Of a stretch of DNA of 41,016 nt, positions 880 through 22,298 are shown piece by piece (within the stretch, counting starts at the first letter, position 1; the number at the start of each line of letters is the position of its first letter). The DNA is from a virus (taxonomy: Duplodnaviria; Caudoviricetes), in IMG/VR virus record IMGVR_UViG_3300032320_000125, positions 1-41,016 of that record; one strand, written 5' to 3'. The notes under the pieces were generated by a model, which was given only the letters and a program-made list of their open reading frames with translations, did not search any database and was not told where the DNA came from. A program made the position numbers and the translations under genes.

Positions 880-956
880 TGACCCCAGGGCTATCAAAGT
901 TATGTGGGTAGATACACAGACACACAGACACACAGATATTTAAAAACCTGGGGTCA
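880..956. repeat. 10-bp inverted repeat enclosing 3 x ACACAGAC tandem repeat
   Basis: TGACCCCAGG 880-889 and CCTGGGGTCA 947-956; ACACAGAC x3 (last copy partial) at 914-936. Confidence 0.8.
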
Positions 957-1440
957 AACATTTGCTGCTGCTTTGCTTTTGTTTAAACTGCTTGCTGATT
1001 TTGCTGGCACTGCTGGCAAAACTAGGGCTGAGCAGCACTATGCGCTGGCTTGGCGTTGACTCGCTGCTCGTATCAATCTCGCCCCCCCCCCTGCATACGC
1101 ATCGCAGCAATCGCAGCCTTGTTTAAACATAGTTGAACTTTCAACTACTTTCCGATGGCTCAGCCTGCATGCGTGGCATCTCACTATGTAAGACAACCGC
1201 AAACATCGCCATAAGTTACTCATCGGTAACACGCTAAAGTCAGTTGTTTAATATCACTTTAGAGCATCGCAACAATTCAACATCGCTGAAACCAGTATAA
1301 ATCAATGGTTTTAGAGCATTACTGATGAGTAACATATTTTTTTGTGCTCATCACTGCATGAACAATCGGAGGCAATCGCATCAACATCGAATCGTTTAAA
1401 CTGCCCCAAAGTCAGTTAAAATCAATGGTTTTAGGGGTGC

Positions 1441-1469
1441 TTGTAATTTTGTTTAAACTCGAATACCTT
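1441..1469 (+). promoter_or_regulatory. Putative sigma-A-type early promoter P1
   Basis: TTGTAA-N17-TACCTT upstream of the first early gene; a GTTTAAAC lies in the spacer. Confidence 0.55.
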
Positions 1470-1516
1470 AGTGCCAGTGGAACAATCCACTACCGACTGG
1501 AAACGGAGCACTACTC

Positions 1517-2047
1517 ATGAGCAATCGTGAATCATGGCTTGCAGACTTCGCTGCTGCAGCCAAGCCTTATGTCACCGAGGGTTTAAGCCTTGGTGGAAAC
1601 GAGGAGGCAGTAATTCGCCTCTCTTGTGGATTTACCCCTAAAACTGGTCGCAAGGCTGCAGATGCAGCAATTGTGCCTCCATCAGCATCCGATGACTTCA
1701 CTGCTGAGATTTTCGTATCACCAATCGTTGACTCAACTGAGGCAGTGGCAAAACTGGTGCTGCCTCTCTTGAAACTGGCTCATATCGGCAACTGGCGCTC
1801 AGCAGCACCAAGCGTTGCCAAGCCACTGGAAACCCTCCCAACATGGGCAAACTCAATCCTTGCCAATCTTGGAGCCTATCCACACGCAGCCCTTGAAATT
1901 GCTGCAGCACCTAAGCAAACAACTCGCCTCATCAAGGTCGAGTGTTTAAACGATGGATATATCGCTCGTGTTTCTCGCAGCACCTTGGTCAACCTTGGCG
2001 CTCCAATCTGCCCTGCATGCCACAACTCACTACTGGAGAGTAACTAA
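1517..2047 (+). CDS. SprT-like phage protein lacking HExxH
   Basis: RESWL, SCGF, EIFVSP, LGAYPHA, KQTTRLIKVEC, CPAC motifs typical of phage SprT-like proteins; no HExxH. Confidence 0.6.
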   Translation: MSNRESWLADFAAAAKPYVTEGLSLGGNEEAVIRLSCGFTPKTGRKAADAAIVPPSASDDFTAEIFVSPIVDSTEAVAKLVLPLLKLAHIGNWRSAAPSVAKPLETLPTWANSILANLGAYPHAALEIAAAPKQTTRLIKVECLNDGYIARVSRSTLVNLGAPICPACHNSLLESN

Positions 2048-2049
2048 CC

Positions 2050-2760
2050 ATGAAAACTTACGGAATCGAACTCGAAACAAGCAGCATCTCAATCCGCACC
2101 GCACAATCTGCACTCGATGCAGTCGGTTTAAACTGGTCATGCAAGCCCGATGGAACTCGTGGCGTTGATGCTGAGGCAGTTTCACCAATCCTCAACGATG
2201 GCAGTTTAAACGAGAGCCTCACCGCTGCTCGTGCCCTACTTCGTGCTGGTGCAACCGTTAACCGCCAAACTGGTTACCATGTCCATATCGGCGCTGACCA
2301 TTACGGCGTGGATGGAATCGCTGCAACGGTTCGCAACTGGTACACCGCAGCCAACGCAATCGGCGCACTCGTTGCCAAGTCTCGTTTAAACAATCACTTC
2401 TGCAATCACAACATCAGCGAGGCAGTCATTGACCAGTGGACTGAAAACATCCGCAACGGTTCAATCCGTAACATCGGAGGCAGTCGCTATCAATCACTAA
2501 ATCTCGACTCATACCAACGCCATGGCACAATCGAGTTTCGCCTACACCATGGCACCCTCAACGGTAAGAAAATCCAAGCATGGGCAGAGTTTTGCGAGGC
2601 TATCGCAACCTTCTCAACTGCTGGCGGAATCCTTGATGCAGGAACTGGTGACCGTTTAAACGACATCAAGTCACTGCTTGGCAAGTTAGTTATCAACGAG
2701 GCAATCAAACTCGACACTGCTAACTACCTCAACCAACGAGCAGTCGAACTCAGCGCCTAA
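2050..2760 (+). CDS. Putative amidoligase (COOH-NH2 ligase, Amidoligase_2-like)
   Basis: YGIELE, DGT, EAVSPIL, TGYHVHIG, RYQSLNL, TIEFRLHHGT motifs. Confidence 0.85.
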   Translation: MKTYGIELETSSISIRTAQSALDAVGLNWSCKPDGTRGVDAEAVSPILNDGSLNESLTAARALLRAGATVNRQTGYHVHIGADHYGVDGIAATVRNWYTAANAIGALVAKSRLNNHFCNHNISEAVIDQWTENIRNGSIRNIGGSRYQSLNLDSYQRHGTIEFRLHHGTLNGKKIQAWAEFCEAIATFSTAGGILDAGTGDRLNDIKSLLGKLVINEAIKLDTANYLNQRAVELSA

Positions 2761-2768
2761 CAAGCGCA

Positions 2769-2814
2769 GCCTGCCCCAAGTGGGCAAGCGAGGGAGCGTT
2801 ACCCTCGGCAGGCA
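2769..2814 (+). ncRNA. Candidate tRNA-like mini-structure (acceptor stem + T-arm geometry)
   Basis: 7-bp GCCTGCC/GGCAGGC stem stacked on a 5-bp GAGGG/CCCTC stem with a 7-nt loop; intergenic. Confidence 0.45.
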
Positions 2815-2859
2815 CTGGTACCAAATTGGTACCTTGTTTAAACAGAACGGACTGGAATC

Positions 2860-2955
2860 ATGAACAGCATCAACTACTGGTCAATCGTAGATGGTCGAGT
2901 GCTATTGCTTGGCTTGCTTGCGGTCGGCTTCTATCTATACGGAAAGAGAATATAA
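2860..2955 (+). CDS. 31-aa single-TM membrane peptide (not in ORF track)
   Basis: MNSINYWSIVDGRVLLLGLLAVGFYLYGKRI; GGACTGG leader; fills an operon gap. Confidence 0.6.
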   Translation: MNSINYWSIVDGRVLLLGLLAVGFYLYGKRI

Positions 2956-2959
2956 CAAA

Positions 2960-3106
2960 ATGTTATACATCATCGAGGGCATTGACTTCTATGGTCGGCG
3001 CTTCACTGGTGCATACAACAAAGAGGATGCGGATTACCTTCTTGCATCCGACCGTTTAAACAGGTTGGTAAAAGTTATCAACCCATGTGATACAATTAAC
3101 TCATAA
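2960..3106 (+). CDS. Hypothetical protein (48 aa)
   Basis: ATG 4 nt after the previous stop; MLYIIEGIDFYGRRFTG... Confidence 0.6.
   Translation: MLYIIEGIDFYGRRFTGAYNKEDADYLLASDRLNRLVKVINPCDTINS
3084..3096 (+). promoter_or_regulatory. Putative extended -10 promoter
   Basis: TG-A-TACAAT; CATGTGATACA recurs at 6100-6110. Confidence 0.5.
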
Positions 3107-3132
3107 CAACTAGCAGACTGGAGAAATAAATT

Positions 3133-3936
3133 ATGTGTGGAATCGCAGGCTTCTGCCTTAACCCAAAGCACAATCAGAATCAGACCGACCTTGCAGCACA
3201 GATGCTGCTCGACATCGAACATCGTGGCTACCATGCCACTGGCGCTGCTTGGATTAACCCCAAGTCAGGCAATCGTGTAATCACCAAAGCACCCGTTGCT
3301 GCAACCAAGTTCATCACAACAGATGCAGGCAAGCGACTATGTTTAAACGCACAGACCGCCATCTTGCACACTCGTTGGGCAACTCAGGGTTCGCCAAAGG
3401 TTAACGACAACAACCACCCAATTCCTCGTGGCAAAATCGTGCTCACTCACAACGGACACATCAGCAACGATGACCAATTGTTTAAACAACTCAAGGTCAA
3501 GCGCCATGGTCAGGTAGATAGCGAGGCAGTCGCTGCACTTATCGCCTTCACTGCTGCACCTATCTCCGAGGTACTCTCTCGTGTACAGGGCACCGCTGCC
3601 TTGGCTTGGATTGAACAGGGTAAGGGCAACACATTGCACCTTGCTCGTGTTAACTCATCGCCATTGTGGATTGGTCAGACTGGCACAGGTTCCCTCGTCT
3701 ATGGTTCAACCGAGGAGACTATCGAGAACGCAGCAGTAATGCTGGACTCCAACCTTGACTGGTCATACTCAGCAAACGAGGGTGAATACTTCAAGGTTAA
3801 AGATGGCAGAATCGTAGAGCACAAGAACTTCGAGCCATTTAAACAGGTCTATACAAACAACTGGCGTGGGTTCGGTAGACTAACCGATGCAGAACTCGAC
3901 AAGTATTGGGCTGACCAAGATGAACTAGCCTTCTAA
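3133..3936 (+). CDS. Class II (Ntn) glutamine amidotransferase
   Basis: MCGIAG N-terminal Cys, HRG..ATG, HTRWATQG, NNHP, HNGHI, VDSE. Confidence 0.92.
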   Translation: MCGIAGFCLNPKHNQNQTDLAAQMLLDIEHRGYHATGAAWINPKSGNRVITKAPVAATKFITTDAGKRLCLNAQTAILHTRWATQGSPKVNDNNHPIPRGKIVLTHNGHISNDDQLFKQLKVKRHGQVDSEAVAALIAFTAAPISEVLSRVQGTAALAWIEQGKGNTLHLARVNSSPLWIGQTGTGSLVYGSTEETIENAAVMLDSNLDWSYSANEGEYFKVKDGRIVEHKNFEPFKQVYTNNWRGFGRLTDAELDKYWADQDELAF

Positions 3937-3972
3937 GTTTCGGAGATAGCCCCAGCATCCTCCGATAAAGAT

Positions 3973-4001
3973 GCCCCCGCTTCGGCGGGGGTTTTCTTTT
4001 T
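3973..4001 (+). terminator. Rho-independent terminator
   Basis: GCCCCCGC-TTCG-GCGGGGGT followed by a T tract. Confidence 0.9.
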
Positions 4002-4231
4002 GCCTGGAATCTGGCAATCTTCAAGTGTTTAAACAAGGTGGTGGTGGTGGTGGGTCTGGTGGTACATAATGTTTAAACAGTTAGCACTCCAGGGACCAGA
4101 CTGCTAACGACATGCGTTTAAACAGTGCGGTTGACAGATGTGGTAGGATTTGGTTTTACCAAAGGTAAAACCTACAAGATACAGGCTATTGTTTAAACAG
4201 AAAAATAGTTTATCTTTTTTTATTTAAATCC

Positions 4232-4260
4232 TTGACATTATTTCTTGGCTTCGGAATACT
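4232..4260 (+). promoter_or_regulatory. Putative sigma-A-type early promoter P2
   Basis: TTGACA-N17-AATACT with an AT-rich upstream tract at 4199-4230. Confidence 0.65.
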
Positions 4261-4306
4261 CGGACATGTAGCAACAGTGCTACCAAGAACAAAGGACTGG
4301 ATACAA

Positions 4307-4498
4307 ATGAAAGAACGCTCAGCGCATGCCATCGCCCAAGGTGAGGCACGCAAATACTTAGTCAAAAAATACCGCAGTGAATACGATGCTATCTATCGCT
4401 CACATGTGCTTGCTTTAGGTGGCAAGGTAAAACCATCAACTGCTGAAAGAATCGAACATCTCAAGGCACAGATTGCAGAACTGGAGGCATCACTATGA
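4307..4498 (+). CDS. Hypothetical protein with C-terminal coiled coil
   Basis: Start moved to ATG 4307 (AAAGGACTGG leader); the TTG at 4232 is the -35 box. Confidence 0.7.
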   Translation: MKERSAHAIAQGEARKYLVKKYRSEYDAIYRSHVLALGGKVKPSTAERIEHLKAQIAELEASL

Positions 4499-4749
4499 GC
4501 AAGCCAACAACATACGAGGGCTGGAAAAACTACAACACATGGAACATTGCGTTGTGGATTCAGAACGACTACGCCCTCTACCTATCAGCAACTCTATTCA
4601 TCAAGAACTACCAAGGTGCCAAGCCTTATCGTGATTGGGTAAAGATTGCTGGACTCGAAGGCAAGGCAACACTAGATGGATGCAAGTACAACGCAAGCGA
4701 CCTCGCTTACGGAGAACTAAATGAAATGATGAAAGGACTGGTGAACTAA
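4495..4749 (+). CDS. Conserved phage hypothetical protein (GWxNYxTWNxALW family)
   Basis: YEGWKNYNTWNIALWIQND motif; ATGA overlap. Confidence 0.75.
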   Translation: MSKPTTYEGWKNYNTWNIALWIQNDYALYLSATLFIKNYQGAKPYRDWVKIAGLEGKATLDGCKYNASDLAYGELNEMMKGLVN

Positions 4750-4977
4750 ATGTTTAAACGCAACTGGCGCACTGCAGTTTCTTCTGATACCAAACCCAAG
4801 CAACCAAAAGTTTTATGGTACGCCGAGGTAACAGACGAGATGATTACCCACCTATCACCGTCTCAACGCAACGAGTTCATGAACAAACTCAGCGAGGAGA
4901 TTGACAAGATAGGTCGGGAGTATCAGGTAGGTAAAGAGTTCAAGAACGGACAACTAAAGGAGAACAACTATGCCTAA
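4750..4977 (+). CDS. Hypothetical protein
   Basis: Abuts the upstream stop; operon position. Confidence 0.7.
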   Translation: MFKRNWRTAVSSDTKPKQPKVLWYAEVTDEMITHLSPSQRNEFMNKLSEEIDKIGREYQVGKEFKNGQLKENNYA

Positions 4978-5332
4978 AGGTGCAGTGCTATACACAGATG
5001 GAACATACGAGGAGAAAGAGTTTAAACAACTCTCCGACATGCAAGCAGCAGTGGATGGACTCATCGAACCCATCGGGATGCATGACTTCTATGGTGCAGG
5101 CGTGTGCCAAGGCTATGTAAATGAGGAAGGACTGCTCAAAGGTTTATCACTCAACGCAGTGGCGAGCGCCATGTCTTTCATGTTCGGTAATACACCTAGT
5201 ATCGTGGGCAATATGATTGTCCTCGGTTTAACTAACGATGAGGGTGAGGACACCGACATCCCTCAAGACATCTTGACTTTTATCAGTCGAGTGTGCGGTA
5301 ACCGTGCAAAGTTAGAGGCTGAGTATGTTTAA
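4970..5332 (+). CDS. DUF3846-like protein
   Basis: MQAAVDGLIE...YVNEEGLL..L.LN..A...IVGN; AAGGAG RBS. Confidence 0.75.
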   Translation: MPKGAVLYTDGTYEEKEFKQLSDMQAAVDGLIEPIGMHDFYGAGVCQGYVNEEGLLKGLSLNAVASAMSFMFGNTPSIVGNMIVLGLTNDEGEDTDIPQDILTFISRVCGNRAKLEAEYV

Positions 5333-5762
5333 ACACATACACCCGCACGCCCGCATTTGGATGGCGACAGTAGTGATACTTGGAATCTTTCTTGTGTTCA
5401 ACCCACGAGTACAGATAACTTCACACGCACCCAAGGGCGAGGTCATTGCATACTACGACAACGAGTACCAACGCTACGCTATCCAACGCTTGATTGAACA
5501 GGACAAACTTGAACAGTACCCATGTCTCTATGAATTGTGGACACTTGAATCAAACTGGCGACCTGCTGCGCTAAACAAATCAAGCAAAGCCATGGGCATC
5601 GCACAACTTATGCCTTCAACATGGGTAAACATAAAGGTTAAGCCAACTAAAGACGGGTTTAAACAGGTTGATGCTGGCTTGAAATATCTTGACCACAGAT
5701 ACGGCAAGACTCGTGGCATCTGCCGAGCATACGCTCATCACCTTGCTAAAGGATGGTACTAA
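5325..5762 (+). CDS. Membrane-anchored lytic transglycosylase (SLT-like)
   Basis: N-terminal TM; CL..LW..ESNW, A.GIAQL, GLKY..HRYG, C.A......GWY. Confidence 0.85.
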   Translation: MFKHIHPHARIWMATVVILGIFLVFNPRVQITSHAPKGEVIAYYDNEYQRYAIQRLIEQDKLEQYPCLYELWTLESNWRPAALNKSSKAMGIAQLMPSTWVNIKVKPTKDGFKQVDAGLKYLDHRYGKTRGICRAYAHHLAKGWY

Positions 5763-6106
5763 TGGAGCCTACCCTTCACACTATCCAATCACGCATGAGT
5801 GTAAGCAACAGAGGCAAGAACTATGTCTCGTTTAAACTGCGCTCTAACCCACGCTTGTATGCCGAGGGTTCATGTCGAGGTATAGACACAGAGGTTTTCT
5901 TTCCTGATAAAGAAATCTTTTTGCCTGAGGAAGAAGCAACTTTCGTACGCATGTGTTCGGACTGCCCAGTCATGGAGTTATGCCAAGAGTGGGGGCTAGT
6001 GCATGAAAGGTACGGCGTATGGGGTGGGCTAACGCCCTTCCGTAGGCAGCAAGAACGCAAGCGCCGAGGTTGGATGGTGTCCGACCCACGAGGGTTCGGC
6101 ATGTGA
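5762..6106 (+). CDS. whiB: WhiB-family transcription factor
   Basis: Four Cys (C..CxxC..C), FFP, GVWGG turn, basic tail; TAATG overlap start. Confidence 0.92.
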   Translation: MEPTLHTIQSRMSVSNRGKNYVSFKLRSNPRLYAEGSCRGIDTEVFFPDKEIFLPEEEATFVRMCSDCPVMELCQEWGLVHERYGVWGGLTPFRRQQERKRRGWMVSDPRGFGM

Positions 6107-6118
6107 TACAGTAATCTC

Positions 6119-6210
6119 ATTGGGCATCTCCCTTACGAAGGGGAAGCGTAAAGTAGGTGCCCATACAAAAGCCCCGCAGGGTTCCAGTCCTTTGCGGGGC
6201 TTCTGTATTT
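6119..6210 (+). ncRNA. Candidate small RNA (5' stem-loop plus terminator hairpin)
   Basis: Promoter-like TG-A-TACAGT at 6104-6112; TGGGCATCT/AGGTGCCCA stem; long terminator hairpin at 6163-6208. Confidence 0.45.
6163..6210. terminator. Bidirectional terminator between convergent operons
   Basis: ATACAAAAGCCCCGCA / TGCGGGGCTTCTGTAT inverted repeat (1 mismatch). Confidence 0.85.
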
Positions 6211-6743
6211 TACAAACCTATTTGTTTAGCAAGCATGAACACTTCATCAGATAAATCATCTAGTGTTCCATCGTTATACAACACATGTTTAAACATGAAG
6301 TTATCCATAGCATGTTCACTCTTGTGTGCATTGACTGGCGCATGGTTGTGTCGGTTGATACGCCACACTTGACCACCGTACTGCAGGATTTCATTAGCCT
6401 CATTAGGAAAGCGAACATCAGAGAACACAACCTTAGTTCCTTCTAACTTATCGAACGCTTGCTGCACCCAAAAGTTATCACCAAATTGTTGGCGACCTAC
6501 ATCAGTACCAAACACTTGAAGCAAACGCCTTACCTCAGGGTTACCCTTGGCTACATCCCAACCATACTCATCTACCAAATCAGCAACACGACTATTAAGA
6601 TTAAAGACTATTGGGTTGAGTGTGTAGATAGCATCACGCATTGGTTGAGCAAACGACATGCGTGTGTACCCATAGTTTAAACACAACAGTTCAGCAACAG
6701 TGTCCTTACCTGATTGTGCGTATCCACTTAAACCAATAATCAT
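6210..6743 (-). CDS. Deoxynucleoside monophosphate kinase
   Basis: GLSGYAQSGKDT P-loop, SFAQP, RLLQVFGT, SDVRFPNE. Confidence 0.9.
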   Translation of the reverse strand: MIIGLSGYAQSGKDTVAELLCLNYGYTRMSFAQPMRDAIYTLNPIVFNLNSRVADLVDEYGWDVAKGNPEVRRLLQVFGTDVGRQQFGDNFWVQQAFDKLEGTKVVFSDVRFPNEANEILQYGGQVWRINRHNHAPVNAHKSEHAMDNFMFKHVLYNDGTLDDLSDEVFMLAKQIGL

Positions 6744-6901
6744 TTGTCAATGTATCCAATCTGCTTGCGTTTAAACCAAATTATTTTATCTCCTGCCAGG
6801 TAAGTATAATACCCTATGTCGTTTAAACAGATGCCAATGTAATACAACGGCAGTCCTATTAAGTTCCATGGTCTCATGCGTTGGTACTTAGGTCTAATCA
6901 T
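6740..6901 (-). CDS. Hypothetical small protein
   Basis: Likely ATG 6901 overlapping the upstream stop; ATGA overlap downstream. Confidence 0.6.
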   Translation of the reverse strand: MIRPKYQRMRPWNLIGLPLYYIGICLNDIGYYTYLAGDKIIWFKRKQIGYIDK

Positions 6902-7544
6902 TATCGGGTTTCCTGTATCTACGATTGTTCCATTGAGGTTGTTCCCCACCTAGTCTGTCTTGTAACTTGGTAAGTGCACGAGACACACGCTTACGCAACG
7001 CTTCCTCGCTGGCACCATACTCAACGGCAAGTACATCAAAGTCAGTACCACCACCGTCAAACCTACGCCGCAAGAGGTCCCTGTCTTGCTCGTTTAAACG
7101 GGCAAGTGAGCCGCTTACATCTGACAACATTGCTTCTCTGTTCATACCCTCATTAGGTTTACTTGTCTTACTAATAAACTCTGCTTCTGCTAGTGAACCT
7201 GACTGCACCCACTGCTCGTAGTTCCATACATCACGCAGTAACTCTTGGAGTATCTCGTGTGTATAGTAGAACGCATCGCTTGGTACAGACTTTGTTTTAT
7301 ATGCACGCTCTTTCGCTGCAAACTTCTGACTCTCGTTGTTAAATGTTCGGCGCAGTTTAAACACTAAAGAATCCTGCCCTTCCCACTCCTCAATTTTATG
7401 CCAGTGTTCTACTGCCCATAAGTTTAGGTGTTGGAATACATCATCAGCAGACACGAGGTTGCGATGGATACGCACACATCGTGTTGCACTGTAGCGTGCC
7501 ACTTTGTATACGCTTTCCCATAACAATTCGTTATTGTTCTCCAT
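6894..7544 (-). CDS. Sigma-70-like / region-4 HTH transcription factor
   Basis: LNEQDRDLLRRRF...FDVLAVEYGASEEALRKRVSRALTKL HTH; N-terminal SADDVFQ helix. Confidence 0.7.
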   Translation of the reverse strand: MENNNELLWESVYKVARYSATRCVRIHRNLVSADDVFQHLNLWAVEHWHKIEEWEGQDSLVFKLRRTFNNESQKFAAKERAYKTKSVPSDAFYYTHEILQELLRDVWNYEQWVQSGSLAEAEFISKTSKPNEGMNREAMLSDVSGSLARLNEQDRDLLRRRFDGGGTDFDVLAVEYGASEEALRKRVSRALTKLQDRLGGEQPQWNNRRYRKPDND

Positions 7545-7926
7545 GTTTAAGTTCCTTCATTGTAGTTAGTAAATCCTCGATAGTAATTAGAAAGCCTTTA
7601 CTCCAGTTCGGTGGTATCTCGCAAGTAATCTCCCTGCCAAACTCCCTGATTGCGTAGTGCACATGGTCTGTTGGTACCATGACAACACCACGCTCAAGAA
7701 CAAACGCCCAATACTCAGCAGTAGTAACCATCAAACCCGATGGCTCCCAAGATTTACTCTTGTTAAACCAACACTCAACTTCTACATAAATGTTGTTAGT
7801 CGCCCACCACTTACGGTCACGCTTAACTTCTACTGTCTTGCCTTCTGTTAGTAAAGCCTCAACTAATTGTTCGCCCTTCCGACCAAAGCCAAAGTCCAAA
7901 TCAAATGATGAGTTCTTTACCATCAT
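7531..7926 (-). CDS. PD-(D/E)XK-like phage protein
   Basis: FDLD..G..GE, VEVKRD, NIYVE, PSGL..T.AEYW. Confidence 0.55.
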   Translation of the reverse strand: MMVKNSSFDLDFGFGRKGEQLVEALLTEGKTVEVKRDRKWWATNNIYVEVECWFNKSKSWEPSGLMVTTAEYWAFVLERGVVMVPTDHVHYAIREFGREITCEIPPNWSKGFLITIEDLLTTMKELKHGEQ

Positions 7927-7928
7927 GT

Positions 7929-8546
7929 TTAAACACCCGCTCGCTTGCGTAATCCTTCTGCACCTTCGGTTAAGTAAACATCATTAACATCTTGACCCTC
8001 AGGCATAAAGACAGGGAACACATTGTCTAGTTCTCTACTTAAATGCTTAGCCATCTCACGCCCTGCGTTGTCACCATCGCACAACAAAATAACCTTTGAC
8101 CAGTCAGCAAGTACACGATTGTAAAAGGACTTCCAGTTGTTAGCACCAGGCAAACCAACCGCACTGAACCCTGCTTGTGTTGCTACAACCGTATCGAGTT
8201 CACCCTCACAGATAGCAAGCACATCTGAATCATTGCTAAGTGCAGTGATGTTATAGATATGAGTCGTAGCCCCTGGTCTGCTCATATATTTCGGACCACC
8301 ATCACTGTTTAAACTACGGAACCGTATGTCAATCACACCTGTAGGTGTGAGGTAAGGGATTGCTAACTTACCAACATAAGGTTCATGCCCCATCTCAGGC
8401 TCTCTTACGAAGCCGAGGCGAAACATAGTCGCTGTCTGTTCTGTGATACCTCTGCTCTGTAGATACGGCACTATTTCCTGTAGGTTTTGAGCGTAACTCT
8501 CCGTTGCTTTCTCCAGTAATTCCTTCTGCGATTTGCTTAGCCTCAT
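7929..8546 (-). CDS. DNA primase, TOPRIM domain
   Basis: IPYLT, IRFR, PKY, ICEGELD, GLPGA, DGDNAG, GQDVND. Confidence 0.92.
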   Translation of the reverse strand: MRLSKSQKELLEKATESYAQNLQEIVPYLQSRGITEQTATMFRLGFVREPEMGHEPYVGKLAIPYLTPTGVIDIRFRSLNSDGGPKYMSRPGATTHIYNITALSNDSDVLAICEGELDTVVATQAGFSAVGLPGANNWKSFYNRVLADWSKVILLCDGDNAGREMAKHLSRELDNVFPVFMPEGQDVNDVYLTEGAEGLRKRAGV

Positions 8547-8775
8547 TGAATCCCACTCCTTCTTTTTTCATGATAAGTGAATACACATCTCCAGCCATCT
8601 CACATCCGAAGCAACGAAACCCACCGTTGTCTATGTTTAAACGGGCAGACTTAACTCTATCACCGTGGAAAGCGCAGCGTAGGGTGAACCAGCCACGCCT
8701 TCCATGCGGTATTTCAAAACCGTAATGCTCAAGAACTTTAACTATGTCGTGCTTAGAGTTTTGCAAGGATGTCAC
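8395..8775 (-). CDS. DNA primase, CHC2 zinc-binding domain
   Basis: CAFHGD...S...FRCFGC...GDVYSLIM..EG..F.EA. Confidence 0.88.
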   Translation of the reverse strand: MTSLQNSKHDIVKVLEHYGFEIPHGRRGWFTLRCAFHGDRVKSARLNIDNGGFRCFGCEMAGDVYSLIMKKEGVGFNEAKQIAEGITGESNGELRSKPTGNSAVSTEQRYHRTDSDYVSPRLRKRA

Positions 8776-9118
8776 CTAGCCTTTGCACAACATAGGCATC
8801 CTCAATTCCTTTATTAGATGCCTTAATAATTACTAATGGTGTAGGTGCGAGCGCAAGTTTCTTAGACTTACGGTAGTTCTCTGCTTCTACATACGCCTCC
8901 CGCAACCATCCTGATAGGTCAATCTTTCCATCACGGCGTGGTGCCTTGGCTTCAATAACATACAAGTCGTTAGCAGTAGGTAATGCAACATCACCAATGT
9001 CATTGCGACCTGCACGAGGTAGGCGTTGTGCGTTTAAACCCTGAGTCATAAACCAATCAGCAAGGTCTATCTCAAACGATGCACCTCTGCGCTTATTACT
9101 CTGCTGTTGGCTCGCCAT
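8753..9118 (-). CDS. Holliday junction resolvase (Hjc-like PD-(D/E)XK)
   Basis: NKRRGASFE, G.NDIGDV, IEAK; start moved to MASQQQ. Confidence 0.75.
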   Translation of the reverse strand: MASQQQSNKRRGASFEIDLADWFMTQGLNAQRLPRAGRNDIGDVALPTANDLYVIEAKAPRRDGKIDLSGWLREAYVEAENYRKSKKLALAPTPLVIIKASNKGIEDAYVVQRLGDILAKL

Positions 9119-9827
9119 TTGTCTGCCTCTCTGCTGCTGCTGCAGCCTGCCAGTACAACGCATAGTAGTTCTCGTCATAGGCAAACCGTTTCATGTGTTT
9201 AACAACCGCACCAGTGTGTGCATACACATCAACACCAGCCTTCTTTAAGTTACGGAAGAACACAATGTCCTCGCCAACATACTTATCTCCTAGTCCTTCC
9301 TTCTCAGCAAATACTGAGTAGTCAGGTGAGACGGCACGCAACTTAGGAACAACACTGCGATGCATCAAGGTAAGACCCAAGCCAGCGCAGTCAACCTTTA
9401 CTACTTCATCCTTAGGTAGTGGGTGTAAGTATCTAATCTCATACTCACTAACCTCAGTAAACAAAGCAGGCATGGGCTGCATCAACGATGACTCCATTTG
9501 CTTGGAGATAAAGTAAGTGCCACATACAACTGGCTTAGTGTTCTTGTCTGCTATTTTCCATAGCATGGCAAGCACATCAGTGGTAAGTACAATGTCAGAG
9601 TCAACCCATAACAACCAGTCTGTCTTTACTTTGTCATACCACATGTCCATTAACGCTTGGCGTTGTCTGCCAATCTGATTACCTTGCACACGGATAGCGT
9701 TGTTAATTGCCATCTTATGGGTAGGTGCAGTTACAGTTGTATACATAATACCTTCGGCAAACTTGCCATCCACCATACCGTTATCGCACCAACCAAGAGA
9801 TAATGTTTCCTGATTACTGTTAGCCAT
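9096..9827 (-). CDS. GT-A fold glycosyltransferase
   Basis: WLLWVDSD (DxD), CAGLGLTLMHRSV, GEDIVF, HTG...KH. Confidence 0.8.
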   Translation of the reverse strand: MANSNQETLSLGWCDNGMVDGKFAEGIMYTTVTAPTHKMAINNAIRVQGNQIGRQRQALMDMWYDKVKTDWLLWVDSDIVLTTDVLAMLWKIADKNTKPVVCGTYFISKQMESSLMQPMPALFTEVSEYEIRYLHPLPKDEVVKVDCAGLGLTLMHRSVVPKLRAVSPDYSVFAEKEGLGDKYVGEDIVFFRNLKKAGVDVYAHTGAVVKHMKRFAYDENYYALYWQAAAAAERQTNGEPTAE

Positions 9828-10110
9828 TGTGCTCCCCTTCTGCTTCATCAAGAACCCGTAATGCGTTCTCTCCCATTTGTTTAAACGAGTTGGACATGTT
9901 AGTTAACTGCTCCGCTATGTCTAGTATGCAATCTCTACCGTGGTCATCCTTAAGATGATTAGATAATTGTGTTACATAGTCTGCAAACTGCATGGCTTCT
10001 AGCCATATCTGATGGGGGTCGTATACCTTCTTGGCTACTTCTTCCATCTGCTCAATTACTTGAGGCAGTTCTTCAAGCAGTGCTTCCTTCATCTCCGCTG
10101 GTAACTTCAT
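9820..10110 (-). CDS. Hypothetical helical protein (start uncertain)
   Basis: Acidic helical ORF filling the operon; upstream extension overlaps the neighbour. Confidence 0.6.
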   Translation of the reverse strand: MKLPAEMKEALLEELPQVIEQMEEVAKKVYDPHQIWLEAMQFADYVTQLSNHLKDDHGRDCILDIAEQLTNMSNSFKQMGENALRVLDEAEGEHNG

Positions 10111-14440: not shown

Positions 14441-14610
14441 TATTCATCCTTTGGGTTGCGTAGTCGGTATGTAATAGCCCAAGCAACCAAGGTGCCTGAG
14501 ATTGCATAGCCAACTACTGTCTTTGCTGAACCATCAAGGACTACCCAAGCAATGAACATGCCAAGTAAAGTCCATAGTTGTTCAACCATGTCTTTGATTA
14601 TTTTCTTCAT
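14440..14610 (-). CDS. 56-aa two-TM membrane protein (not in ORF track)
   Basis: MKKIIKDMVEQLWTLLGMFIAWVVLDGSAKTVVGYAISGTLVAWAITYRLRNPKDE; ATGA and TAATG overlaps. Confidence 0.8.
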   Translation of the reverse strand: MKKIIKDMVEQLWTLLGMFIAWVVLDGSAKTVVGYAISGTLVAWAITYRLRNPKDE

Positions 14611-16088
14611 GGGTTTCTCCTATAGGCTGCTGCTGCCACCATGCCTGCTGCATTAACTGCAGCCTGCCCAGCAATAACTGTTGCGACAATAATCTTTTCT
14701 GCTTCTTCTCTTTCTTCAACTGACATGTCAGCACCGATGCTTGCTAATGCAAGTAAGGCTTGTCCTGGGTCAGTAAAGAGCGCTTCAACAAGGGCTGCTG
14801 GAGATTCCAATACAACCAATGCTGCTGCTACTTCTGCCGTGATAACAACTTCGTTACCGTTCTCATCTTGACGAACTTCAACAGGTGTATCAGGTGGTAA
14901 ATCTTCATAGGTTAAGCCTGCTTCTTGGATAGCCTGTGCTGTAACTGGCTTACCTTCTGCTGCTTCAATGAGTGCTTCTGCTACTACTGCTCTTTCCTCT
15001 GGTGTAGAATCTTCTGTAGCCACAACTGGTGGTTCAGGTTCTATAGCAGGGGGTTCAGGTGCAGGTTCAGGAGCAAGTTCGGGAACTGGAGGAGCAGGAA
15101 CTTCCTCTACAGGAGGGGCTTCTTCCTCGACAGGTGGCTCCTCAACAGGTAGAGGTGGTTCCTCTGCAGGAGCAGGAGGTTCTTCAACAGGAACAGGCTC
15201 TGGAGCAGGAGGCTCTGGCGCTACCTCTGGAGCAGGCTCAGGCTCTACTGGCGCAGGTTCAGGCTCAGGTAGAGTGGCTGGAGGTTCGGGTGCGGGTACT
15301 GGTTGGACTTCTGCAACAGGTTCAGGTTGAGGTGCAGGCGCTGGCTCAGGCTGTGGGACTGGGGCAGGCTGCGGAGCAGGCTCAGGTTGTGGCTGTGGAG
15401 CAGGAGGCTCAGGTACTGGAGTTGGCTCAGGTTGAGGCTGAGGAACTGGAGTCGGAGTTGGCTCTGGAGGAGTCACTGGAACAGGAGCAGGAATAGGTGA
15501 AGGCTCAGGTGTAGGCTGTGTTTCAGGAACAACAGGCGTTGGTTCTACAGTAGGAGTAGGGGTTGGAGATGGTTCAGGCAACGGAGCAGTATTGGAAGGC
15601 TCAGGTTGAGGAGTTGAAGTTGGAGTTGGTTCGGGCGAAGGCTCAACTGTTGGTGTTACAGAAGGCGTTGGACTCGGTTCAGGTGTCGGAGTCGGACTTG
15701 CGGTTGCAGTTGCGCCGTCAGATGGCGAAGGAACAGGGGTTGGCTCCGAAGTGGCGCTCGGTGACGGAGTAGGTGTTGGTGTAGGTTCAGGTGCAGGAGC
15801 AGTTGTTACGCCATTGTAATACCATGTGCTCTCAGGAGCAGTGGTGCTAATAAAAGTTTTCCATTGACCTTGTGTTCCAATAGAACAAAACAAGGCAGCA
15901 ATGTTTCCTTTGCCTTCAAAGAAAGGTTCGGTTGTACTCCAACCAACTCTAAACTCTTTGGATTCACCACCCTCATTAGCGCATACAACAGTGATTGGAC
16001 CTGTCTGTTCTGCTTGGGCTGATGGTGTAAAGAAAAAAGAAGTTCCTAGTGTAAGGAACGATACTGCAAGTAAACGGGGAAGTTTCAC
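14607..16088 (-). CDS. Exported Pro/Glu/Thr-rich stalk protein
   Basis: Signal peptide (AQA cleavage), small 2-Cys domain, long PEP/PT repeat, hydrophobic C-terminus ending RRNP. Confidence 0.8.
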   Translation of the reverse strand: MKLPRLLAVSFLTLGTSFFFTPSAQAEQTGPITVVCANEGGESKEFRVGWSTTEPFFEGKGNIAALFCSIGTQGQWKTFISTTAPESTWYYNGVTTAPAPEPTPTPTPSPSATSEPTPVPSPSDGATATASPTPTPEPSPTPSVTPTVEPSPEPTPTSTPQPEPSNTAPLPEPSPTPTPTVEPTPVVPETQPTPEPSPIPAPVPVTPPEPTPTPVPQPQPEPTPVPEPPAPQPQPEPAPQPAPVPQPEPAPAPQPEPVAEVQPVPAPEPPATLPEPEPAPVEPEPAPEVAPEPPAPEPVPVEEPPAPAEEPPLPVEEPPVEEEAPPVEEVPAPPVPELAPEPAPEPPAIEPEPPVVATEDSTPEERAVVAEALIEAAEGKPVTAQAIQEAGLTYEDLPPDTPVEVRQDENGNEVVITAEVAAALVVLESPAALVEALFTDPGQALLALASIGADMSVEEREEAEKIIVATVIAGQAAVNAAGMVAAAAYRRNP

Positions 16089-20636: not shown

Positions 20637-22298
20637 CTAGAGTGCTTCCATAAGAAGCAGGGTTAGTTCATCTTTAATACTTCCTGGACCATTAAGAACA
20701 ATATCAACCATGCCGTTAATAGTTGTTACTGTTGTTCCAGATGCAATAAGTGTGCTACCAAGGGTAGGTGCAGAGTATGAACTGGTTGTATTGATTGCAG
20801 TCCATGCGCTACCTGACCATACTGACATAATGCCAGTTACAGAGTTAAAGTACATAGCACCAATAATCAATGCGTTGCCATCATTGTCCACTGTTGGTGG
20901 CGTTGACTTTGCACCTAGATAACGGTCATCAAAGTTGTCATAAAGCGTTGCAGCATCTGTTGCACTTGTGGCTGCACTTGCTGCCGATGTGGCTGCTGCT
21001 GTCTGGCTTGTTAGAGCAGATGATGCAGAAGTAGCAGCGCTAGTAGCAGAAGTTGCTGCAGCGGTTTGAGAAGTTAATGCTGATGATGCTGATGTTGCAG
21101 CACTGGTTGCACTTGTAGCAGCAGCAGTTGCGCTTGTGCTTGCAGAAGTAGCAGATGTTGCAGCAGCACTTGCGCTTGCTGCAGCAGCAGAAGTTGAAGC
21201 AGCAGCAGAAGCAGCGCTAGTTGCAGCACTTGATGCAGATGTTGCAGCAGCAGATGCTGAGTTAGATGCTGTAGTTGCAAAGGCTGAAATTGCTGCAACA
21301 GAAGCAGCAGCAGTTGTAGCACTTGATGCAGCAGCGGTAGCAGAGTTAGATGCACTTGTAGCAGAAGTAGATGCAGCATTTGCGCTATTTAAAGCAGATG
21401 ATGCCGATGTAGATGCGCTTGCAGCAGAGGTAGATGCAGCATTTTGTGATGTAAGAGCAGATGCTGCACTTGTAGTTGCAGAGTTTGCTGATGACAAAGC
21501 AGATGCTGCGCTTGTTGAAGCGCTATTGGCTGATGTTGCTGCAGCATTAGCACTATTAGCAGCGCTTGCAGCAGAGGTAGAAGCAGCCTGAGATGAGCCA
21601 AGGATTGAGTCAACATAAGCCTTACGGGTTGCATCATTATCTGATGCTGGGGCACCAAGCCCAGTAATAAGGAATCCACCTGCAGCAAGGTTTGAGCCAA
21701 GGGTTCCAGATGTAATAGTAGAACTTGTTACTGTTGAACTTGTAATTGTTGCAGCAGTTACAGTACCGCCAGTAATTGTAGCAGTAGATGTAAAGGCACC
21801 GCTAATGGTAGCACCATTGATTGTTGGTGTTGTAAGAGTTTTGCGAGTAAGAGTTACTGATTGTGTGGAACCAACTACTGAACCATCGCCAGTTTGAAGT
21901 CCGTGCACATGTGTCTGTCCAGCGTTGGAAAGAATACCTGAATCAACATCATAGCCACGGGCTGCAATATGAGTTTGTTCTTCTTTGAAGTCACGACCAG
22001 ATACACCATGGCGTACAGATGTACCAGCAGTATGAGACACCGCTTGTGTAGAGTCTTGACCACGAACAATTTGAAGTGTTGTTCCAACTACAGATATACA
22101 GGTAACAACTTCTTCCTTGTTGGTATCTGGTGCAAGAATCAGTGTAAATGGAGCAGCAGGGTAACCGCTAACAGATACAACAGAAACGCTCGTAGTTGTA
22201 TCGCCAGTTGCTGCTGATGAAATAGAGTTAACGAGTGTTGTTTCAATCGCTGTGGCGGAAAAGTTCCGCTTGAGTACGCCTGGGTCGCCTGCTGCCAT
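20637..22298 (-). CDS. Tail fibre with Ala/Ser/Thr repeats
   Basis: SA-rich periodic stretch, DATRKAYVD, FDDRYLG...DNDGN. Confidence 0.8.
   Translation of the reverse strand: MAAGDPGVLKRNFSATAIETTLVNSISSAATGDTTTSVSVVSVSGYPAAPFTLILAPDTNKEEVVTCISVVGTTLQIVRGQDSTQAVSHTAGTSVRHGVSGRDFKEEQTHIAARGYDVDSGILSNAGQTHVHGLQTGDGSVVGSTQSVTLTRKTLTTPTINGATISGAFTSTATITGGTVTAATITSSTVTSSTITSGTLGSNLAAGGFLITGLGAPASDNDATRKAYVDSILGSSQAASTSAASAANSANAAATSANSASTSAASALSSANSATTSAASALTSQNAASTSAASASTSASSALNSANAASTSATSASNSATAAASSATTAAASVAAISAFATTASNSASAAATSASSAATSAASAAASTSAAAASASAAATSATSASTSATAAATSATSAATSASSALTSQTAAATSATSAATSASSALTSQTAAATSAASAATSATDAATLYDNFDDRYLGAKSTPPTVDNDGNALIIGAMYFNSVTGIMSVWSGSAWTAINTTSSYSAPTLGSTLIASGTTVTTINGMVDIVLNGPGSIKDELTLLLMEAL

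Follow-up and report, generated by a model that had tools for sequence, protein, structure and literature searches.

The complete genome of a Caudoviricetes phage (IMG/VR record IMGVR_UViG_3300032320_000125; 41 kb, with a terminal repeat of 123 nt) carries a candidate small RNA (sRNA) directly after its whiB-like gene. In this study, we analyzed the whole stretch of 41,016 nt, referred to here as the window, together with related phage loci. Sequence comparison makes it probable that this phage sRNA of about 90 nt is produced from its own predicted promoter and pairs in trans, through the open loop of its terminator, with short tags in the leaders of early genes, the expected effect being repression. 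The element is likely an sRNA that pairs with early messages, because its loop and the tags change together among related phages.

The + strand block at 1517-6106 contains eleven genes, including those for an amidoligase, a glutamine amidotransferase, DUF7249, DUF3846, a transglycosylase, and whiB. The opposing - strand block contains the genes for a dNMP kinase, a sigma factor, a primase, a helicase, and virion proteins. We infer from position and gene content that the + strand block is early. The whiB-like gene (5762..6106, +; PF02467) is the constant upstream neighbour of the RNA element, and the convergent dNMP kinase gene (6210..6743, -; PF21448) lies downstream of it. Ahead of the first early gene, about 1.1 kb (340-1480) has no convincing gene and several inverted repeats (e.g. 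680-745), and is likely a genome-end or origin region. A 493-codon protein with a signal-like N terminus and a long Pro/Glu/Thr-rich repeat region is encoded at 14607-16088 (-). At 20945-21253, a match to Rfam isrG (45 bits; gathering score 100) within the Ser/Ala repeat of a likely tail gene is probably a low-complexity artefact. A near DNA match to the phage was not found in a set of 50,697 phage records, and at the protein level the matches were all distant, in Gordonia and Arthrobacter phages. The host is likely a freshwater actinobacterium, because the phage resembles cultured 'Ca. Planktophila' phages in WhiB, sigma factor, glycosyltransferase, 45% GC, and size, as these are described in the accessible part of their report (PMC10202952).

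The predicted sRNA lies at 6119..6210 on the + strand, with ends estimated from fold, covariation, and model match. A model of the RNA matched 6119-6214 as the sole + strand copy in the window, and the structure z-score of the element was -4.9 to -5.5. It consists of a 5' hairpin (6122..6162, +), which shows compensatory stem changes but is dispensable, and a terminator-like hairpin (6169..6202, +), which has T-runs on both strands and lies between the convergent whiB and dNMP kinase genes. To examine relatives, whiB-anchored scans (three of which gave the best 80 of 389, the best 80 of 271, and the best 80 of 358 relatives) and pattern matches were combined into 230 whiB loci, window included, of which 153 were non-redundant. 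A hairpin with a pyrimidine loop followed whiB in 152 of these 153; the exception, L368, ends at the stop codon. In the covariation set, comprising 38 of the 42 distinct elements with a long 5' hairpin, 99.6% of 911 cells were paired and 17 of 24 pairs changed on both sides, compared with at most 53% paired in slid controls. The stems were wholly replaced in several clades, with the TTCCAGTC loop retained. A search of Rfam, including 6C and C4, gave no match at 6100-6210 down to E=1, and none on the elements of L222, L406, L230, and L350. Judged by its sequence conservation, the element is a real RNA family that is absent from catalogues.

Some variants and outlying matches were also observed. 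Directly after whiB, six loci (L334, L339, L350, L351, L370, and L371) have a three-way-junction variant, in which a CCTTTCGTCAGG-like hairpin is conserved next to the seed loop. The RNA model has another match, weaker than the first at 34 bits, at L072:17110-17203, distant from whiB. A genome scan yielded 33 loci in bacterial records and no close phage relative; the RNA model did not match the five of these loci that were compared with it.

The predicted promoter of the sRNA is an extended -10 box, TG-A-TACAGT (6104..6112, +), which overlaps the whiB stop codon. A preliminary description of this DNA had noted the same 11-mer, CATGTGATACA, at 3084 and 6100, and it was indeed found at those two sites only. 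Its twin at 3084 corresponds to a conserved extended -10 box (3088..3096, +) ahead of the glutamine amidotransferase gene, present in all 43 unique upstream regions of that gene. The sRNA and one of its targets are therefore likely to have promoters of a common type. Among 76 unique elements from viral-contig loci, TANNNT ended 4-13 nt before the first stem in every case (50 at 6 nt; background 12%), and TGnTANNNT lay within 24 nt of the first stem in 64 (background 1%), the stem starts for these distances being set by eye. In elements that lack the 5' hairpin, the box shifts up to the terminator stem, and in many relatives the whiB stop codon supplies part of it. The preliminary description had proposed either a trans-acting RNA or the 3' end of the early transcript. 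As the dedicated promoter tracks the 5' end of the RNA, a stand-alone sRNA is more likely than a mere 3' end.

We determined how the loop of the terminator hairpin relates to the leaders of the early genes. The seed, TTCCAGTC(CTTT) at 6182..6193 (+), is the reverse complement of the leader tag, and its core had a mean unpaired probability of 0.86 over the 76 elements. All twelve nucleotides had previously been assigned to the loop; eight of them, TTCCAGTC (6182-6189), do form its open part, but CTTT (6190-6193) is predicted to be part of the stem, whose weak top contains two G-U pairs. The seven matches between loop and leaders reported earlier were reproduced in both position and length, all on the + strand. 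The longest, 11 nt at 4291..4301 ahead of the gene at 4307, gave the best duplex (-22.6 kcal/mol) and has a promoter-like site, TTGACA-17-AATACT (4232-4260), upstream. Matches of 10 nt at 4732..4741 (gene at 4750, the tag lying within the last DUF7249 codons), 8 nt at 1495..1502 (gene at 1517; phrog_6361, function not known), and 7 nt at 3116..3122 (glutamine amidotransferase gene at 3133) were found, as well as 9 nt at 2849..2857 (31-codon ORF at 2860; duplex -20.3 kcal/mol). Two matches of 6 nt, at 2032..2037 (amidoligase gene at 2050; -9.1 kcal/mol) and 4480..4485 (DUF7249 gene at 4495), are weak. Pairing at the 4732 tag is kept in 9/9 unique relatives, in some of them via G-U.

The tags of the window read (AAAG)GACTGGA and overlap Shine-Dalgarno-like purines, and the ACTGG core of all seven ends 4-16 nt ahead of the ATG of a + strand gene. 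That the tag is a plain Shine-Dalgarno sequence was ruled out: the leaders of late genes have ordinary AGGAGGTG-type sites. To our knowledge, the standard actinobacterial 16S tail does not predict the GAC part of the tag. ACTGG occurs in 7 of the 11 early leaders (binomial P 9e-9 from genome frequency, calculated post hoc). Summed over the 11 leaders, the match of the loop arm was 77, against a shuffled mean of 45, and none of 5000 shuffles was as high. Among all genomic 15-mers, the loop arm ranked first as a complement of the 11 leaders when the leaders' own antisense was excluded. Duplex energies separated early from other leaders at P 0.028 only, in a list that included one wrong start (4792), which is absent from the ACTGG count and the 15-mer ranking above; in the ranking by duplex energy, the primase leader came third. 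This leader (8546, - strand; -19.9 kcal/mol with the seed) and that of the dNMP kinase gene (6743, - strand), which reads GATTGGA, are possible extra targets.

The position of the hairpin between convergent genes would also suit a bidirectional terminator and nothing else, the loop match being due to chance or a relic, and a 5-mer complement of the tag is present in 4 of 270 stable hairpin loops of the genome. However, a terminator alone does not account for a loop that stays invariant amid stem turnover, for the dedicated promoter, or for the co-variation of loop and tag described below, and we consider this explanation extremely unlikely.

Co-variation of loop and leader motif between related phage clades had been put forward as a check on pairing; it was found, along with two weaker switches. 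Five loop classes were found. Class A (73 loci) has the loop core CCAGTC, and its start-proximal tags are 179 GACTGG versus 12 GACAGG. Class B comprises 74 loci, upstream DNA being present in 73, and has the loop core CTCCTGTC, with 354 GACAGG versus 21 GACTGG; that is, TTCCAGTC phages have GACTGG leaders and CTCCTGTC phages have GACAGG leaders. Where at least 3 kb of upstream DNA was present, the motif of a locus's own class outnumbered the other in 48/48 class A and 41/41 class B loci. Sense and antisense counts of the motif were 297/24 in class A and 443/16 in class B. In five near-complete class B genomes, the tag GACAGGAG had 6-9 copies on one strand and 1 (four genomes) or 2 on the other, and most class B tags end 8-11 nt ahead of the start. 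On whiB trees, the A/B switch is a single change (100/100; 81/91 in a wider tree), so that the large counts for the two classes are not independent. In 5 genomes, the class A 7-mer only just exceeded the control when counted genome-wide (7-11 vs 3-9 copies), and leader variants showed no clear G-U preference. One locus, L061, speaks against co-variation, as its loop is of class A and the tag of its amidotransferase leader of class B. In L270, the promoter region matches the amidotransferase leader over 12 nt, which was judged to be chance because the match is absent from sister loci.

The switch between classes A and B also coincides with the replacement of one iterated DNA word, GTTTAAAC, by another, CTTAAGAC. 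In the window, GTTTAAAC has 48 copies (33 within 900-10000), about 55-fold above the 0.86 expected. Relatives of classes A, C, and G have about 3 copies per kb around whiB, and class B phages have CTTAAGAC/GTCTTAAG at about 1.9 per kb in its place. Of 229 class A tags, 47 have an iterated 8-mer no more than 25 nt away, and 151 of 261 class B tags are fused to CTTAAGAC. Our literature search on the iterated word found nothing relevant. Two further switches are free of this confound, yet thin. In L350, which is nested in class A, the loop is ATCTCCTTG, GACTGG is gone from the early region, and GTTTAAAC is retained; the loop has a 13-nt match to the phage's own amidotransferase leader, a length equalled by 4/2000 shuffles and by 2/89 other loci. 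L328 has the loop CTAGTCC with the leader GGACTA, and its sister clade (L314, L315) has CCAGTCC with GGACTG, a comparison that covers one orthologous leader.

The fusion of so many class B tags to CTTAAGAC is a feature that might be expected if the tag were a protein site, be it a DNA operator that has a single reversed copy or the RNA site of a translational regulator with a - strand hairpin as a decoy. The - strand hairpin, too, ends in a T-run, and it displays the sense tag. The structural evidence nevertheless favours the + strand, on which the promoter box lies: the + strand fold was the more stable in 66 of the 76 elements, and G-U pairs numbered 254 (+) versus 120. The reversed copy remains in an open loop despite stem replacement, and L350 loses GACTGG as its loop changes, yet keeps GTTTAAAC. 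CsrA was not found in the phage genome. We regard a protein site as unlikely.

We investigated the purine loop of the 5' hairpin, AAGGGGAAG (6138-6146), which resembles a Shine-Dalgarno sequence. It is kept across classes A, B, and C, and GAACGCG takes its place in 7 loci. A complement to its 8-9-nt core was not found on the + strand of the genome. A pattern scan for this loop returned 120 loci, mostly chance; the sole new class (L178/L230) has no upstream genes. The loop could bind the ribosome, a protein, or a host C-rich sRNA. Pairing might then activate or stabilise the early messages, the RNA opening or protecting leaders or serving as a ribosome adaptor through this loop. Such a role would agree with the conservation of a Shine-Dalgarno-like loop across three classes, with the promoter type that the sRNA has in common with a target gene, and with the weak Shine-Dalgarno sequences of several class A leaders. 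However, AAGGGGAAG is present in 68 of the 153 loci and missing in 85, and the Shine-Dalgarno purines are themselves covered by the seed, class B being the clearest case. Activation is therefore very improbable in our judgement.

Repression through pairing, the reading that we prefer, would proceed as follows. Host RNA polymerase would transcribe the sRNA early in infection, and a stable two-hairpin RNA would build up. The loop would seed on the leaders without a chaperone, and the weak G-U top of the stem would melt, extending the duplex to 10-11 bp. Since the tag overlaps Shine-Dalgarno purines, a duplex there would block 30S binding and reduce the translation of early genes. Early proteins would thus be made in a pulse, which the accumulating sRNA would damp. 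As the sRNA promoter resembles a conserved early promoter in type, a delayed brake, building up with time, is more probable than a switch that acts late. A likely side effect would be damping of another phage that enters later and has this tag on its early genes.

If this side effect were instead the main job of the pairing, the sRNA would serve to exclude later phages of the same class, and the loop classes would be immunity types. The finding of five loop classes is compatible with such a function, and a precedent exists in the c4 antisense RNA of P1/P7, whose specificity is set by matched changes in loop and target according to the available text of PMC5320573. However, the loop classes here are stable over deep clades and are not fast-diversifying, and no integrase or repressor family was present among the 42 phage proteins scanned. 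We consider superinfection exclusion as the main function quite unlikely.

The predicted pairing resembles that of c4 in that a phage RNA acts in trans through loops at a ribosome-binding site. As described in part in PMC5320573, c4 is an RNase P-processed RNA of three stem-loops and belongs to a temperate-phage immunity system; our element, in contrast, has two hairpins, its own predicted promoter, and about seven early leaders as targets, in a genome with no lysogeny genes among the 42 proteins scanned. The 6C/B11 sRNA of Actinobacteria is also similar, with two stem-loops and a pyrimidine-rich open loop complementary to many ribosome-binding sites, and its loops pair with the ribosome-binding sites of many mRNAs, leading to repression (PMC10470900, accessible sections). 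That RNA is host-encoded, and its C-run loops recognise generic G-rich targets (PMC10470900, same sections), whereas the present element is phage-encoded, with one seed loop in the terminator and a private, co-evolving tag. Instead of cytosine runs in two loops, it has one pyrimidine and one purine loop. The general features of a trans-acting sRNA, namely its own promoter and terminator, a conserved structure, and a seed against several targets, are all present in the sequence. The element thus likely works like 6C/B11 and c4 and is a member of neither. An sRNA with which a phage addresses its own early genes through a shared tag was not found in the literature, which was searched mostly without subscription papers; a 2025 review describes, in its available portion, antisense RNAs that act on single phage genes or on host genes (PMC12197685).

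The tags resemble motifs known as start-associated sequences (SAS) in mycobacteriophages of cluster K and Microbacterium phages of cluster EF, which, in the accessible portions of the reports, are likewise asymmetric one-strand motifs at the ribosome-binding position of non-structural genes (PMC3203893, PMC7302621, PMC11373665, PMC12699233; the comparison literature also includes PMC4351075 and PMC5320573). In cluster K, SAS were described at the ribosome-binding position with an unknown partner, and a single reverse copy was noted in four K1 genomes (Pope et al. 2011, PMC3203893, in part). Inverted repeats of 17 bp (ESAS) accompany the SAS of cluster K. Their role was still called unknown in papers of 2024 and 2025 (PMC11373665, PMC12699233, available text), the former suggesting a protein partner. 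The tags here are shorter, differ in sequence, and belong to unrelated phages. The SAS core GATAGGAG and the class B tag GACAGGAG are one base apart, and the cluster K consensus GGGATAGGAGCCC is not matched by the tags of the window.

We examined whether the reverse SAS copy is placed in a comparable RNA structure. In Anaya, Adephagia, and Amelie, it forms an open loop, with an unpaired probability of 0.87-0.90, on an intergenic hairpin preceded by another hairpin. In Dadosky, the hairpin with this loop has a different location, flanked by a tRNA gene and the gene for the small terminase. The anti-SAS hairpin loop thus has differing genome positions in Kratiovirus and Anayavirus (L406:130-175, Dadosky ~1030-1100; L222 near 2186, Adephagia 58685). 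The Adephagia hairpin lies in the gap between genes 92 and 93, the reported start of late transcription in the part of that literature available to us. A match to the Anaya region was found in 193 phage records, eight of which besides Anaya were examined, Adephagia among them.

In all, an exact reverse copy in a hairpin loop was found in 4 of 11 cluster K phages. TM4, Pixie, Hurricane, Shadow1, KiSi, MarkPhew, and Ekdilam have 12-17 SAS cores, and an exact reverse copy was not found in them; no reverse copy was found in AnnaSerena. A universal anti-SAS RNA in cluster K was ruled out, six genomes being without a candidate and Ekdilam having a degenerate one only. Because the mirror is present in 4/11 cluster K phages, it cannot be the sole reason for SAS, and because 7/11 keep their tags although an exact reverse copy is missing, an RNA mirror is not needed for tags to persist. 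These seven phages, and the protein partner suggested in the accessible text of PMC11373665, count in favour of the protein-site explanation considered above. The mirror is universal in the whiB-element family, whereas it is exact in only 4/11 of the cluster K phages with SAS. The RNA model of the whiB element does not match the cluster K elements, which indicates that the cluster K hairpins are analogues and not homologues.

Phage early-gene shut-off is usually ascribed to proteins. A broader proposal, which we hold tentatively and at somewhat less than even chance, is that actinophages have an RNA-only master switch, in which private tags at early ribosome-binding sites are read by an sRNA with a re-programmable loop, and that such a switch also explains the lone reverse SAS of K1/K5 phages. 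If this is true, timing would be controlled at a different layer, by one RNA that addresses a set of the phage's own genes via co-evolved tags, and SAS motifs, whose role has been open since 2011, would have a first partner. The function of SAS becomes directly testable in cultured phages (Adephagia, Anaya, Amelie, and Dadosky, in M. smegmatis), in which the predicted RNA position is known. The element would also, if the proposal is true, provide a compact, re-targetable repressor for Actinobacteria.
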